DNA from: Hormiphora californensis
Lineage: Eukaryota > Animalia > Ctenophora
Length of the DNA stretch: 64,000 nt
Direction: 5' to 3'
Assembly: GCA_020137815.1 (NCBI GenBank)
Contig: CM035353.1
Span: 2,852,001-2,916,000 of the forward strand
A program made the position numbers and the translations under genes. Of the stretch, positions 1,353 to 61,000 are shown piece after piece. The notes under the pieces are model-generated. The model did not search any database. It was not told the origin of the DNA and saw nothing but the letters and a program-made list of their open reading frames with translations. Every line of letters begins with the position of its first letter. Positions within the stretch are counted from its first letter, which is position 1.

Positions 1353-4300
1353 TCACGTGCCGAATAGGCGGAGAAAGTGAGATATCTCGTCCCGGAACTC
1401 ACTAACCTCACACCTAAAGAATGAAATGTTGGTTAAAATATAATCAATAAACCCGGGTTTAGGGGGGAGACACACTGAAGTTGGGCGCGCTCGTTGAGAT
1501 CTCAACCGTGTATCAAAGTGTATATTTAGCCTCTTCGACAGTGTATGAGGTCCAAATGAGGTCCGGAGGTTTTCTGAATAAGCTTTCTGAATCCTTTCGA
1601 TATCGAACTCGAAAGGATAAATGAAAGGCTTGGGCGTTATGCGAAAATCACAATATCGCTCCAAAAATTCTCTTTGATAGGAACCACATTTTTAAACTTT
1701 TTCTTGCTAGCTGCTATATCTATATGACTTATAGAAATTTGATGCACTCGAGTAACTTACACTCTGTTGGAGGATCCGTCGTGTACCATTTTAGATCTTG
1801 AAATCTCTGCATTTAGCTCAGCGATTTGTTTTTTGAGGGTTGCAACACCGTTGTTTACAGAGTTCAGTAATCGGGACAAGGTCGCACTGAGATCCCTGGA
1901 GAATGAATTGTTGGTAATAATGAATTGTTATTGGAATCCAAGGAAAAACAAAAAAAGGTAAAAAGGGGTGAAACTTGGATCAGCTGAAATGTTTTCGAGA
2001 ATGCAAAAAGCGGGGTTCAAATTATTATAGGGAACTGCATGAAACACAAGTAAAACAACACATGTACATACCTCTGTACTTGAGTACTGCAGCAATTCCC
2101 AGTGTACGTTACGATATCGTGGAGCTTGATAGAGGCGTAATCGCAAAACTAAAATTAGATTTCTTTTATTATTTGGAATAAAATGTTTGGAATAAAGTAT
2201 TTTTATCATTAAAACATCATATACATTTGCCTTGATCGATCCCCTCGGCCTCACTGCGCCTTGCGATTTACCTGTTGTTTAAAACGACGTTCCATGGCTC
2301 TATCGGTATATTTGAGCCTCTCAAAACCGTATAGTCCCACATAAACCGCCCCAGTAGCTGCAATAACTCTCCATCCCACGACTTGATATATCTGTGCAGA
2401 AGTGGTGGTGGGTTAGGCATCAAATACAGTATTGGTAGAGGAGTTGGATATCAAATCAATAGAGATGTATGATGTAATTAGCCAATCAGGGACCAGTATT
2501 TCCTGATTCGGTCGGTTCCTGGCTACTAACACGCAACTAAATTGCAGTCACTCACCCCTCCAATAACGACGGTGGCGCTGAGGGCTGTCTTGCTACTAAA
2601 CACAGGCAACAGACGGGTTGCAATGAACAGCAGGGCGTTCTCTTCCGAGGGTACGGCAACTGCAGCCGCTGCACCTCGCCCTGTGGAACCCGCTGCCATG
2701 CTAGGTCCAGGGGACACTGCAGGGAGAGAGAGAGTTTATAATACATAATGTGGTTTTGCTCCATTTCTCAAGTTCATATATTATCACAAATCGTTATACC
2801 TGCAGTTATGGCCTCAGCGTTCGTCTCTCCTAGTGTCTGCAGGAAGCTGGAATATCGGGGTCCAAGGAATCGTCGGGCTAGGGCCGTTGGTCCAAAGGAA
2901 AACTGGAATGTCAGTTGGTACTGGAACCCCATAAACAGGGACTGGCAATCAATCTGATAGATTGGCTCGAATGAACTGAAATAGTACGGTTTACGATAGA
3001 ATATATTTAATTGTTCATATCATTCATGATATTGGGCATAGTATCATCACGGGGAACTCAAAAACTGTAACACAAACACACAGTAACTTTGGCCACATTG
3101 ATGCCTGAGCGAGATCGAGGTCGCGCAGCGACCGAGATCGATCTCACATCTAGGCCTCCGGCCCGTTATTGATTTTAGAGCAAACTTTTTCAAAGACCTG
3201 GCTGCAAGGAACTACTGAACCGATTTGCATCTCGTTCGTTGCTCCTGGCAGATAATTGTCTCTAGTTTTACGGAAAATACCCGCGAGTATCAGCATTTGA
3301 GGAATAGTGGGTCAAAATTGACGCTAAACATGAGCAATTCTTTAAAGACCTGGCTGCAAGCTCCTACTCGGTCCTGGGACAATCTGCGGGTACTGGGGGA
3401 ATCGTCATGGCCTTGTGAGTATGGGAAAATACCCGCCGATTCATCACGATGCGAAATGAGGTCATAATTGACCTTTGAGTAGTGCTAGGTCAGCTAAAAA
3501 GGTCTCCAAAAACGGTCTATCACGCGCGATCTGCTGAAAACGTGCTTTATATCGCGCGCACGTGAGTTCTTGCTCTCAACGGGCCGGGATCCTATTATTC
3601 GCGGAGCGAGAATAGGATGCGATGGATCCAAACAGTAACTGTATTACTTCTGGAGACTAACTTTTGAAGTTCCAAGTCCGGTTGGGAGGGTCCTACAAGG
3701 GGGCTCTCTTGGATATCCGACAACTGCTTTACACGACCTGTGTGTTTGACATGATAATGTAAAATATTCAAGGGTAAAATGTTGTGTGTGTGTGTGAACA
3801 AGCAAGAGATGCGCGCGCCTCTAAACGGCCGCTCGCAGGGGGGTCTACAAGAAGCTCGCCGCGCCCTACGCGAACTAAACAGTTCAACTGTGTCAGGCAA
3901 ATTGGCCAATGTTCACTAAGAGTTCAGTTCATCACGGGTGTCGGGATTTGCCCTGTTCGAGCCTGTTTCACCGAACGTAACAATAATTGGAGATAATTAA
4001 TATTCTTACCACACATTTCACTCTTAATATCATCGTAAACCCTCGAGATCCTGTTATGACAACGGTCCATTAAATTCCGTCCCAGGTGCTCTTCAAGATG
4101 GGACTCCAGCTCCTGATAATAATAGTAATATCAGAATTATAATTCGATTCAGTCCCTGATAATAAAAGTAATATTATAATTATAATTCAATTCATTCTAC
4201 ACCCTTTAGAGAATGGATTAGAATGAATCATGAATCTTGAATGGCCAAAATAATGGATTGATTGTTGAGAGAGATGTGATCTTGAGACAAATGGAATGAC

Positions 4301-58072: not shown

Positions 58073-61000
58073 TCAGACACTAGCGGCAGCAGATACCATA
58101 ACATCTGGAATATCTTCCATCATTGATGACCCTGGTTGTTCGCCCTCCTCAGTTTTGATGACTGTAGTAGGATGGATTTCACCCTGGTCCTGATCACCCT
58201 CACCTCCCTCAAGTTGGGGGACCACCAGACTAGATCCGTTTTGGTCTCCGTACAGGGATTGGACAAGGTCTTTAGTCAACATACTCATCCCATAATCAAC
58301 ACCCCCACCTGATGGAGACCCCGTTAGACTGCCAGCCATGGTTGCCATGCTACCATCATCATCTGGGAAATACTTCCTTTTTCGGCCCCGTTTGGAGTTG
58401 AAAATGTGTTGGTTGAGGTTGGGGTGGCGGTGACGGACGTGTGACTTGAGGTTGCTCTGTTGGGCGGTGTCGTACGGGCAGTATGGACACTTGTAGGGCC
58501 GTTCTCCCGTGTGTTTTCTCTGGTGAATGGTTAGTTGACCCTTCGTTACACACCGGTAACTGCAGACATCGCACCCAAACGGTTTTACATCGCTGTGTTT
58601 GTACTTCATGTGAGTGTCCAGCGTGTTCTTTAGGCCTGTAAGGAGGAAGATTCCAAATATTATTACGTTGCACTGTCTATGATTTATTAAGATGTACATA
58701 CATTGTGCAGTTTATATTGGCATTAATTATAGAAATCGTCTGCAAGAATTTCAATGAATATATTATTATCTACCTGCTCTATAATCGCAAAGGGGGCACT
58801 GGAAAGGCCTATCATCAGTAAGGTGACTCTCATAGTGCAGGGTGAGCTCATCATTACTGGAACACTTGAACTCGCACCGTTTACAGTGGAAGAATCCCTC
58901 TACGGGCTGGGGTGCGTTGTGCTTTCGGAGCATGTGCGTTTTCAGGTTCCCTCGCCACTATAGGGGGTGGGGGAAAGAGGGTTAAATAACAATGTAAGCC
59001 ACCCTCGGCAGTCGGCACTATAGGGGAGGAGGGGGGTAGATAACAATGTTAGCCACCCTCGCCACTGTAGGGGAGGAGGGGGTTAGATAACAATGTTAGC
59101 CACCCTCGCCACTATATGGGTGGGGACTCGTAGAACATATTTATAAACCAGTTTTCTTAGAAAAATGGGGGGGAAGGTGTATTAACGGAAATGTAGTGCG
59201 GGTTTACTACACAATATATGCATATAATACCTGGGAGGAATAGTTGCAGAGGGGGCATTTGTGCTCAGGTGGATCAGTCCTACCGTTCCTCTCCATCATA
59301 TCAGGATGTTTATCAAACATGTGGGATCGGAGACTTCCTACCCAAACACACCGGAAATCACAGTGCTTACACTGGTACCTCTTCTCCATCTCTCCTTCCC
59401 TGTTCTCTGCATCTTTATGGCACTGGAAATATGAAGAGGTTGTTTGGTTTGGTTTGGTTTGGACCACTCATCTGGGACTGTAAACAGTCACACAGCCAAG
59501 TCTCGCCGAACAGGCGAGACAGCATAGTGCCGGATCATCCTTTCGGAATCACCACCAGATCGTCTTCTGTCTGTCGTATGAAGAGGTTGTTGTGGGATTC
59601 TTGATTTCTGTGCATGGTAAAATTATATGTTTTCTGGAGTCTGTAACAGAGATAAAAGTATAATATGTACCTGTGAAATATGAGAGGCTAGAGTCATTTT
59701 TGATGATGTTTTGAAGTGACAGAGGGTACAACAGTGCATGTTCTCCTCTGTGTTGGCGTGTCGGAACTCGATGTGCTTCTTTAAGTTGCCTGTAGATAAA
59801 AAGAGGTCATTAGAGGTCATTAGTGGATCTTGAAAGAGGTCATTAGGATCTGGAAAGAGGTCATTAGGCTCTGGAAAGATCTAGAATAATCTGGAATGAT
59901 GTTGTAGTTTGGGAGATAGTAGAATTACGGCCACCGTACAGGAAGACCTCAAACTCGATATCTTTTGTCCTGGTATAAACAAAAAGTAAATTCACCTTTT
60001 TGAGCGGTTTTGTATTCACAATAGGGGCATCGGTGGGGTTTTTCACCGGTGTGTGTTCGAACATGTAAGGTTAGTTGTATGCGGGAGGGAGCTCGATACT
60101 TACACATCTTACATGCGTAAGGGCGAACTACCTGAAAATATAGAATGCTAAGGTTCAACAATTAAAGAGAAACAACGATTTTGCAGTACTAATATTCAAT
60201 TAAGAACAGGAGCTTTCGACTGATCTATGTCAGACGTCTTCAGCTAAGGTTCAAAATCCGAACATGTAAAACAGATACACCGGTGAGTAGACTGTGAGTA
60301 GAGACTGGATAGATTAAAGCGAGATATTTTGGCAATTACCAGTTTGTTCCCACTGTAGTTATGTTTCACAGCACGTTCCATTTTATCATCCCCACCATCC
60401 CCACCACTCCCCTCCTCGTGAGAACGAAGGTGGAGGGTAAAGGCACGTTTACTGAAGGTCAGGTACTCGCATTTCGTGCACCGCAGCTGCTTATCGGCCA
60501 GGGAGAATGGTTTGACCGGCTGGGGGTAAAGATAAACTATTAGTGAAATATACGACAAACCATCTTGTTTGTAAAATGTTGCACATGTATTATGTTGCAC
60601 AACATGTTGGTTCGTAGACCACAACTTTATGTATCTAAGATTGAAGAAAACCATTTTGAAAAAAGAGAGAATTATTGACTTACAGGTGTTATGGGTTCAA
60701 CAACTGGAGCGGCTGTAGCAGTACTCGCCAACTCAGTTGCCAACCGCAACATCTCTGGTGTAAGGGTAATGGCTGAGGAAGCCTCCGTCATACCGCTCAT
60801 ATCCCCCGAATCAAGACCGTTCATGAGGGTGTGCTGGATTGATTCAAGTAACGACTGATCTGCTGCAGTGGACGTTGTCTGGAGTTCTGATGACGTCATG
60901 AGTTCAGATGATGACGTCATATGATCTCCAGTTATTGGTTTTGTGTCCATCTGATCGCCTGCACTAGAGGCAGCCGGGGACAACCCAGCCAAGTTATTGA

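Follow-up and report, generated by a model that had tools for sequence, protein, structure and literature searches.

Mirage minisatellites in amphioxus and probable mirages in the Hormiphora window

Tandem copies of intron-exon boundaries, so-called mirages, are known from the amphioxus genes Adh3, BflGb6 and BflGb9 (globins), troponin C and PGBD5 (PMC3087553, PMC3902484). According to the accessible parts of these reports, the units are 10-160 nucleotides (nt) long, copy number varies between haplotypes, and splicing is reported to be normal; for Adh3, somatic instability is reported as well. Their origin is called unclear, and an enrichment test does not appear in the same parts. We analyzed a window of 64,000 nt from the ctenophore Hormiphora californensis (GCA_020137815.1, contig CM035353.1, positions 2,852,001 to 2,916,000), in which splice junctions of four intron-rich genes carry similar arrays. 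We consider it probable that these arrays are mirage minisatellites as well and that they represent a tolerated by-product of mutation, an explanation that joins the several steps discussed below.

The likeness to amphioxus is close. In both animals intron-exon boundaries are copied in tandem, either exon end can be affected and AG or GT is kept in many copies, as far as the amphioxus reports are accessible. Copy number reaches 38 in Hormiphora, compared to 3-7 in the amphioxus globin and PGBD5 cases covered there. Further differences are the ctenophore host, the density, with 9 straddled junctions among 84 in a single window, an excess that was tested against null models, and transposons at the same exon edges. 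The phenomenon is already named; novelty lies in the phylum, in an excess that was measured, in turnover among samples and species, and in the transposons near exon edges as a lead. We found no report of a ctenophore mirage in the open literature, and the extension to ctenophores means that the phenomenon spans the animal tree. The accessible text on a ctenophore genome reports that 13% of it is tandem repeat and that heterozygosity for intronic indels is high, and it states no link to splice sites (PMC8527503).

Donor-side minisatellites are known from human genes. Intron 7 of F7 contains a 37-bp variable number tandem repeat (VNTR), of which the most upstream donor alone is used, and 6-16, CBS, lamin B2 and PDGF are further cases in the accessible part of the source (PMC1557585). 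The cases given there are donor-side and single loci, whereas the Hormiphora arrays are mostly acceptor-side. In the Rogers model of intron gain, again from partly accessible sources, an exon-internal AG|GT is duplicated and a new intron appears (PMC3265369, PMC2812944). Common to that model and to the window are a tandem duplication with splice signals and splicing via the outermost sites; the Hormiphora arrays differ since they lengthen existing introns. We rejected intron gain, because no new intron position was found, non-repeat intron parts remain, and the affected reductase protein is colinear with the protein P0136 and with lobate orthologues, a colinearity that rests on protein comparison and not on a direct comparison of intron positions in the relatives.

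Arrays at splice junctions

Four spliced genes, all on the minus strand, were modelled by hand from three-frame translations, yielding 42 internal acceptors and 42 donors. They encode a mitofusin-like GTPase (1332..20528), an NADH-cytochrome b5 reductase (24322..29622), a homeobox protein (33420..54661) and a zinc-finger protein (58073..61586). Arrays were found by Tandem Repeats Finder (TRF) and each was then split at its splice signal in order to count AG or GT copies. A sequence-only reading of the window had proposed that its exon-intron junctions are amplified into arrays of decoy sites, and every repeat which it listed was recovered at its place by this procedure.

The reductase gene carries the most elaborate arrays. 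At exon 7, a 49-nt acceptor mirage (24892..26710) contains 38 AG copies, namely the true acceptor at 24916 and 37 decoys; in 21 of these, the last 19 intron nt are those of the true site. Its unit combines 24 nt of intron with 25 nt of exon 7 and includes the tail of an insert resembling a short interspersed nuclear element (SINE). At exon 4, a 50-nt acceptor mirage (27934..28580; true acceptor 27963) has 13 copies of about 20 nt of intron and 30 nt of exon, and 11 of the 12 decoys show no difference from the true site in 19 intron nt. The unit also has one donor-like site, defining a 26-nt pseudo-exon. A single synonymous base at position 27947 separates the true exon from all 12 decoys and can serve as a marker for decoy versus true reads. 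The neighboring 37-nt donor mirage (28580..28743; true donor 28740) consists of five copies of the last 4 exon nt plus 33 intron nt, a construction like that of the F7 VNTR as far as the latter's description is accessible. The intron between 28740 and 27963 is made almost entirely of this donor array and the 50-nt acceptor array; about 50 nt are left after collapsing both, and some of the original intron sequence has probably disappeared. Two smaller cases in this gene are a 45-nt donor duplication (27797..27880, two copies in the assembly, true donor 27857) and a degenerate 39-nt acceptor duplication (26972..27021, two copies, true acceptor 26979) that was missed by TRF.

Similar structures were found in the other three genes. 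In the mitofusin gene, a 58-nt acceptor duplication (16396..16505, acceptor 16431) has two copies with 52 nt exact and 6 nt of filler, and a 43-nt acceptor duplication (4112..4194, acceptor 4112) has two copies sharing one exon nt. A putative acceptor is present three times 5' of the mitofusin start codon (20522..21560; copies at 20528, 20606 and 21544), and an inserted element of about 0.8 kb with short inverted ends lies between the copy at 21544 and the remaining two. The homeobox gene has an acceptor mirage with units of 37-64 nt (52772..53151, acceptor 52794), in which seven of the eight units are intact and one lacks the AG, as well as a 70-nt donor duplication (54466..54597, two copies, donor 54580). 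In the zinc-finger gene, a 47-nt acceptor mirage (58948..59120, acceptor 58957) has four copies. Among the arrays recorded by TRF, six acceptors and three donors are straddled when the array at 58948 is extended by hand. As in mirages, the units span a real boundary, AG or GT is retained in the copies and both exon ends are duplicated.

Other arrays lie just upstream of an acceptor. These are a 43-nt duplication (34263..34346) ending 10 nt before acceptor 34253, an 18-nt repeat resembling a branch point and pyrimidine tract (35153..35293) 14 nt before acceptor 35139, a 21-nt branch-point-like repeat (59802..59879) 13 nt before acceptor 59789, a 24-nt repeat (51986..52031) 13 nt before acceptor 51973, and two 12-nt repeats, each 11 nt before its acceptor (27363..27395, acceptor 27352; 16830..16865, acceptor 16819). 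The arrays at 16830, 27363, 34263 and 51986 had been overlooked in the sequence-only reading. Degenerate repeats resembling branch points and pyrimidine tracts also precede acceptor 52300 (52305..52460); their TRF rows begin 37 nt from the acceptor, and they were therefore left out of all counts within 30 nt.

Long repeat units are in excess at junctions

For the null test we used 58 merged TRF arrays with a period of at least 10 nt, excluding simple repeats, and collapsed each to one unit. Units were then placed at random, with wholly exonic positions barred, over the whole window, within the same intron, or within 300 or 150 nt of a junction (proximal nulls). The array set was edited twice (the 70-nt row replaces a CAAA tract, and the array at 35153 was taken as an 18-mer), and the cases at 20528 and 26979 were excluded from the statistics.

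Among units of at least 30 nt, eight of 14 straddle a junction, compared to 1.14 expected over the whole window (P = 3e-6). Under the same-intron null, 8 of 13 straddle versus 3.78 expected (P = 0.003), and under the proximal nulls 8 of 11 versus 2.85 (300 nt, P = 0.0015) or 3.6 (150 nt, P = 0.007). Extending the array at 58979 by hand to its last copy raises the straddlers from eight to nine. With shorter units included, the counts are 8 of 26 for at least 20 nt (P = 1e-4; strict nulls P = 0.01-0.05) and 8 of 58 for at least 10 nt (P = 0.0015). The junction excess in this one window thus amounts to about 7-fold by the naive count, falls to about 2-fold once geometry is accounted for, and is confined to long units. 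The earlier claim that most longer-unit repeats lie at splice sites holds for units of at least 30 nt, of which 10 of 14 are within 30 nt of a junction; it fails for units of at least 20 nt, where only 12 of 26 are.

Acceptors are hit more often than donors. Arrays within 30 nt were found at 12 of 42 acceptors and 3 of 42 donors; the ratio is 7:3 for units of at least 30 nt (P = 0.34), 9:3 for at least 20 nt (P = 0.15) and 12:3 for at least 10 nt (P = 0.035).

Decoy sites and selection on the reductase gene

The reductase model (8 exons, 297 amino acids) is confirmed by P0136, which is identical in 292 of 297 residues (98%) without gaps. The source contig of P0136 is 1,115 nt long, too short for introns and hence transcript-sized, and the protein corresponds to use of the outermost sites. 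That the intact exon uses the outermost copy in every coding case had been pointed out before. This is true; however, no copy but the outermost one continues into the remainder of the exon, so that the arrangement is forced by geometry and says nothing about splicing.

All reductase decoys would truncate the protein. Use of any of the 37, 12 and 4 decoys of the three mirages, of the second 45-nt donor or of the decoy at 26979 would lead to products of 76-276 amino acids compared to 297. Among the rows listed, 16 of 18 checked exon differences are synonymous, which shows purifying selection on the host exons. It is therefore likely that the reductase gene functions despite its arrays, and the decoys would have to be skipped. 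The sequence-only reading had offered mutational bias and tolerance as alternatives. Tolerance, which is also the published interpretation of mirages, gains indirect support from the selection on the host exons, the truncating decoys and P0136, but the two are not alternatives, because tolerance alone cannot enrich junctions over intron interiors, and either a mutational bias or a longer survival of anchored copies is needed in addition.

All eight acceptor units retain at least 20 intron nt (range 20-73; P = 0.03 under a uniform register), and in 17 of the 42 acceptors the last branch-point-like motif lies 17-25 nt upstream of the AG. All acceptor units thus keep the branch-point range, which fits a filter that purges duplications stripping the true acceptor of its branch point. 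In the acceptor arrays a forward (5'-to-3') scan would pick a decoy, and hence exon definition, or the lack of exon enhancers in the decoys, must be invoked. In the work of Reed and Maniatis (1986), duplicated sites whose exon sequence had been shortened were reportedly skipped. As for recursive splicing, in which AG|GT sites are used step by step along a long intron, the 49-nt unit does read AG|GT, but the true junction has this sequence too and has to escape re-splicing.

Read support and variation between samples

Short-read contigs of several runs were compared with the window over 28480-36000 and 26875-28030, and the results given here are among the matches listed. The runs were identified through 56100-61600; marine metagenome matches with small shares and two distant loci from a metagenome scan with prefoldin do not enter the evidence. 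These stretches took in the 50-, 45-, 37-, 43- and 18-nt arrays and the duplicate at 26979; the 49-nt array lies outside. Run X5 is another sample with the same species label, and X7 is another species with exons about 90% alike.

In run X1, a 63-nt contig spans the joint between two units of the 50-nt array without any difference; its depth is 2,486 compared to 244-381 for single-copy sequence, so that this array is real. That the arrays are a long-read assembly artefact is consequently next to impossible, although at least one single-base assembly error is likely (see below) and the 49-, 58- and 47-nt arrays and the one at 52772 were outside the read comparison. The second sample has the 50-nt unit too, and variants shared among array copies distinguish them. 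The 45-nt donor duplication reaches a depth of 2,635 in X1 versus about 320 alongside, and it likely has more copies than the two in the assembly.

Length and unit composition vary between samples and species, as between the alleles of mirages. A contig from X5 lacks one of the 43-nt copies (34316 to 34363), X5 has a variant 37-nt donor unit (28608-28674), and one of its contigs (depth 19) contains a go-back joint over acceptor 26979. The 50-nt unit has a depth of 151,750 in X5 (flanks 90-410) versus 5,046 in X1. Summed depth does not equal copy number and such differences are suggestive only; X5 likely has a far longer 50-nt array, or the unit is spread elsewhere. In X7, the depth on the 50-nt array drops to 8 and 0, a poor cover that does not prove absence. 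X7 has a further go-back copy at acceptor 26979 on an exon-bearing contig (depth 63), and the degenerate duplicate at this acceptor is therefore the remnant of an array older than the split between the species of X5 and X7.

That this duplication is shared with a related species would also fit functional arrays, with decoys or multiplied branch points tuning splicing or sending transcripts to decay. The acceptor bias, the pure branch-point or pyrimidine repeats at six further acceptors, and the use of pseudo-sites by some human donor-side minisatellites, as the accessible part of PMC1557585 has it, point in the same direction. We nevertheless consider a function very improbable, since presence and apparent length of the arrays differ among samples and species, the units are unrelated to one another, and each tested decoy truncates the protein.

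How an acceptor is chosen could be tested directly on alleles of a housekeeping gene that carry few or many identical acceptors. On the practical side, arrays of this kind disrupt assembly from short reads and can lead gene prediction astray at the edges of exons.

Origin and persistence of the arrays

According to the explanation that we favor, pieces of 37-78 nt spanning an exon edge would duplicate tandemly into the adjoining intron. The process likely starts with a local duplication at a DNA break or a replication slip, and amplification by unequal exchange likely follows. Since copies carrying just 1-36 nt of exon would be skipped by the spliceosome, they are likely tolerated. Survival would be filtered, so that the acceptor units which remain are those with at least 20 intron nt, leaving the true acceptor its own branch-point zone. 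In addition, the exon-side copy would be anchored by selection. Copies would then diverge at about half the rate, and an anchored array could not be deleted whole, could regrow and would stay recognisable longer. By reasoning, this anchor effect could give much of the 2-fold excess. A mutational preference for exon edges probably contributes as well, since small transposons cluster there too. No function is needed for the arrays.

Several observations weigh against this explanation. The data come from a single window that was picked for its pattern, and thresholds were fixed after inspection of the data. Under the strict nulls, the excess is not significant for units of at least 10 nt (P = 0.05-0.15), nor is it for introns of up to 600 nt alone (5 of 6 versus 3.2 expected, P = 0.10). 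The duplication junctions show little microhomology, and thus do not single out one starting event. In the RNA runs compared, no RNA from an array-bearing genotype spans a decoy junction: in X22 nothing on the reductase was found and only a piece of a transposon matched, while X15 yielded a single exon-6 contig, which continues beyond the compared stretch, and two short pieces of unrelated sequence. P0136 probably comes from a relative; it has a variant seen in the relative, which may lack the arrays. Finally, a 34-nt array with 47 copies lies far from the modelled junctions. It is a counter-example which the sequence-only reading omitted.

Some of these points would favor mere geometry combined with the choice of the window, in which any duplication falls near a junction because the genome is rich in repeats, its native introns are short and its long introns are filled with transposons. 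The fall of the excess under strict nulls, the non-significant result for short introns, several large arrays away from junctions and the tandem repeat content of the related genome (in the accessible part of PMC8527503) are in line with this. Geometry is nonetheless an improbable explanation, because long units remain significant under the same-intron and both proximal nulls (P = 0.0015-0.007) and because all acceptor units retain the branch-point zone. Enrichment beyond what short introns produce is accordingly seen for units of at least 30 nt under these nulls and not for short introns taken alone.

Mobile elements and sequence features at exon edges

A 109-nt inverted-repeat element with 8-nt target duplications has eight copies in the window and is very abundant in all three DNA runs. 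Four copies (2474-2521, 26814-26861, 29463-29571 and 35463-35571) are located 11-35 nt downstream of a donor (expected share 0.033, P = 8e-5), and all four of the copies within the 300-nt zone do so (P = 3e-4). The other copies are at 9680, 40859, 57173 and 57641. The SINE-like element with a short-repeat tail, for which no Rfam match was found, is present at 59459-59561 and 26719-26801, and its target duplications end 6-7 nt before the acceptor AG in both cases. Since its tail is part of the 49-nt unit, the 49-nt array is younger than the insertion.

These insertions raise the question of whether exon edges are a true mutational hotspot. Nucleosomes are positioned on exons, and the linker DNA beside them is a candidate break site; breaks in this linker or splicing-coupled R-loops would then drive the pattern in place of survival. 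The clustering of both elements, a median internal exon of 121 nt, the higher C content of array-bearing acceptors (0.32 vs 0.24, P = 0.04) and duplication junctions with little microhomology and some filler, which fit break repair, speak in favor of this. However, the numbers are small, post hoc and from one window, two of the four donor-near elements are partial copies, and a target-sequence preference of the transposon could account for the clustering. Moreover, the arrays prefer acceptors (12:3, or 7:3 for units of at least 30 nt) while the 109-nt element prefers donors, and the C-richness may result from the arrays. We thus regard a hotspot in place of survival as unlikely, although a hotspot is compatible with the mirage explanation favored above. 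The broader view, that exon-edge DNA is a mutational hotspot in this ctenophore lineage, with duplications, a DNA transposon and a SINE all arriving within a few dozen bases of splice sites, is likewise rather unlikely. If it were true, about one sixth of junctions would carry a repeat, some of the repeats would persist across species while expanding to tens or hundreds of copies, and skipping dozens of identical acceptors would be routine for the spliceosome. Mirages would in that case record, across the genome and across animals, how chromatin or splicing shapes mutation, and would provide a natural panel for the choice of the last among many identical acceptors.

Runs of at least four C were found in 7 of 12 array acceptors and in 8 of 30 others (P = 0.08). 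G-quadruplex motifs overlap arrays at 20543-20699, 28670, 52331-52446 and 53054-53139 as well as the 34-nt array and 27-nt arrays. As a general cause we rejected G-quadruplexes, because they do not overlap the 50-, 58-, 43-, 45- and 70-nt arrays.

Arrays away from junctions

The 34-nt array with 47 copies (41277..42890) is the second-longest in the window and lies deep in a 12.4-kb intron with no modelled exon nearby. It is embedded in 27-nt arrays (41159/42967; whole block 41159-43337). On the plus strand its unit reads as branch point, pyrimidine tract and AG|GT in 46 copies, and on the minus strand as a consensus donor in 47 copies. A candidate in-frame micro-exon of 42 nt (42976-42935, minus strand) has its acceptor within the last 27-nt unit; a stop-free in-frame exon ending at the donor-like sites of the 34-nt array was not found. 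The array may be an orphan mirage. Other arrays off the modelled junctions, likewise absent from the sequence-only reading, are the 27-nt arrays, an 82-nt array (44223), a 50-nt array (54754) and a 35-nt array (6472).

Genes of the window

All minus-strand models have open frames, and Pfam supports their domains, with matches for 12 of 15 pieces. Only the reductase has protein confirmation; the clusters of its relatives include Mnemiopsis and Bolinopsis proteins, and P0136 and the lobate orthologues are colinear with the model. The mitofusin, homeobox and zinc-finger models are based on frame continuity together with Pfam domains. The mitofusin-like gene has 21 exons, with nested genes inside. 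Pfam itself gives Dynamin_N, and we presume a mitofusin from its likeness. One extra base in its exon 7, at about 17350, breaks the frame and is likely an assembly error.

The homeobox gene has 9 exons and the zinc-finger gene, of the C2H2 type, at least 8. These neighbors both open with a CSTF1-dimer-like first domain according to Pfam (52632-52793 and 61430-61585), and hence the four genes hit by arrays, described before as unrelated, are indeed four but not all unrelated. A search for a full-length relative of either CSTF1-dimer gene found none; for the homeobox gene one piece of 92 amino acids at 83% was recovered. Two non-LTR (long terminal repeat) retrotransposon frames with reverse transcriptase lie in homeobox-gene introns (36717-39068, minus strand; 45365-48586, plus strand), and one of the two also has an endonuclease.

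Nested genes are common in a ctenophore genome, as stated in the accessible part of its description (PMC8527503). In mitofusin introns we found a cysteine-rich membrane protein gene resembling TNFR and ephrin receptors (4500-6430, minus strand), a gene for a small secreted LDLa protein (15696-16142, plus strand), and a hydrophobic frame without Pfam match (about 11700-12600, plus strand). The window also encodes prefoldin 3, which has six relatives at 76-92% with everything else at about 60%; the relative at 80% clusters with Mnemiopsis leidyi. Together with the clusters of the reductase relatives, this identifies the window as ctenophore DNA. Acceptor-like sites are located directly before the start codons of prefoldin 3 (22369), mitofusin (20528) and the minus-strand nested gene (about 6469), and they may serve in trans-splicing. 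The site at about 6469 follows the end of the 35-nt array (6472-6580) by about 8 nt.

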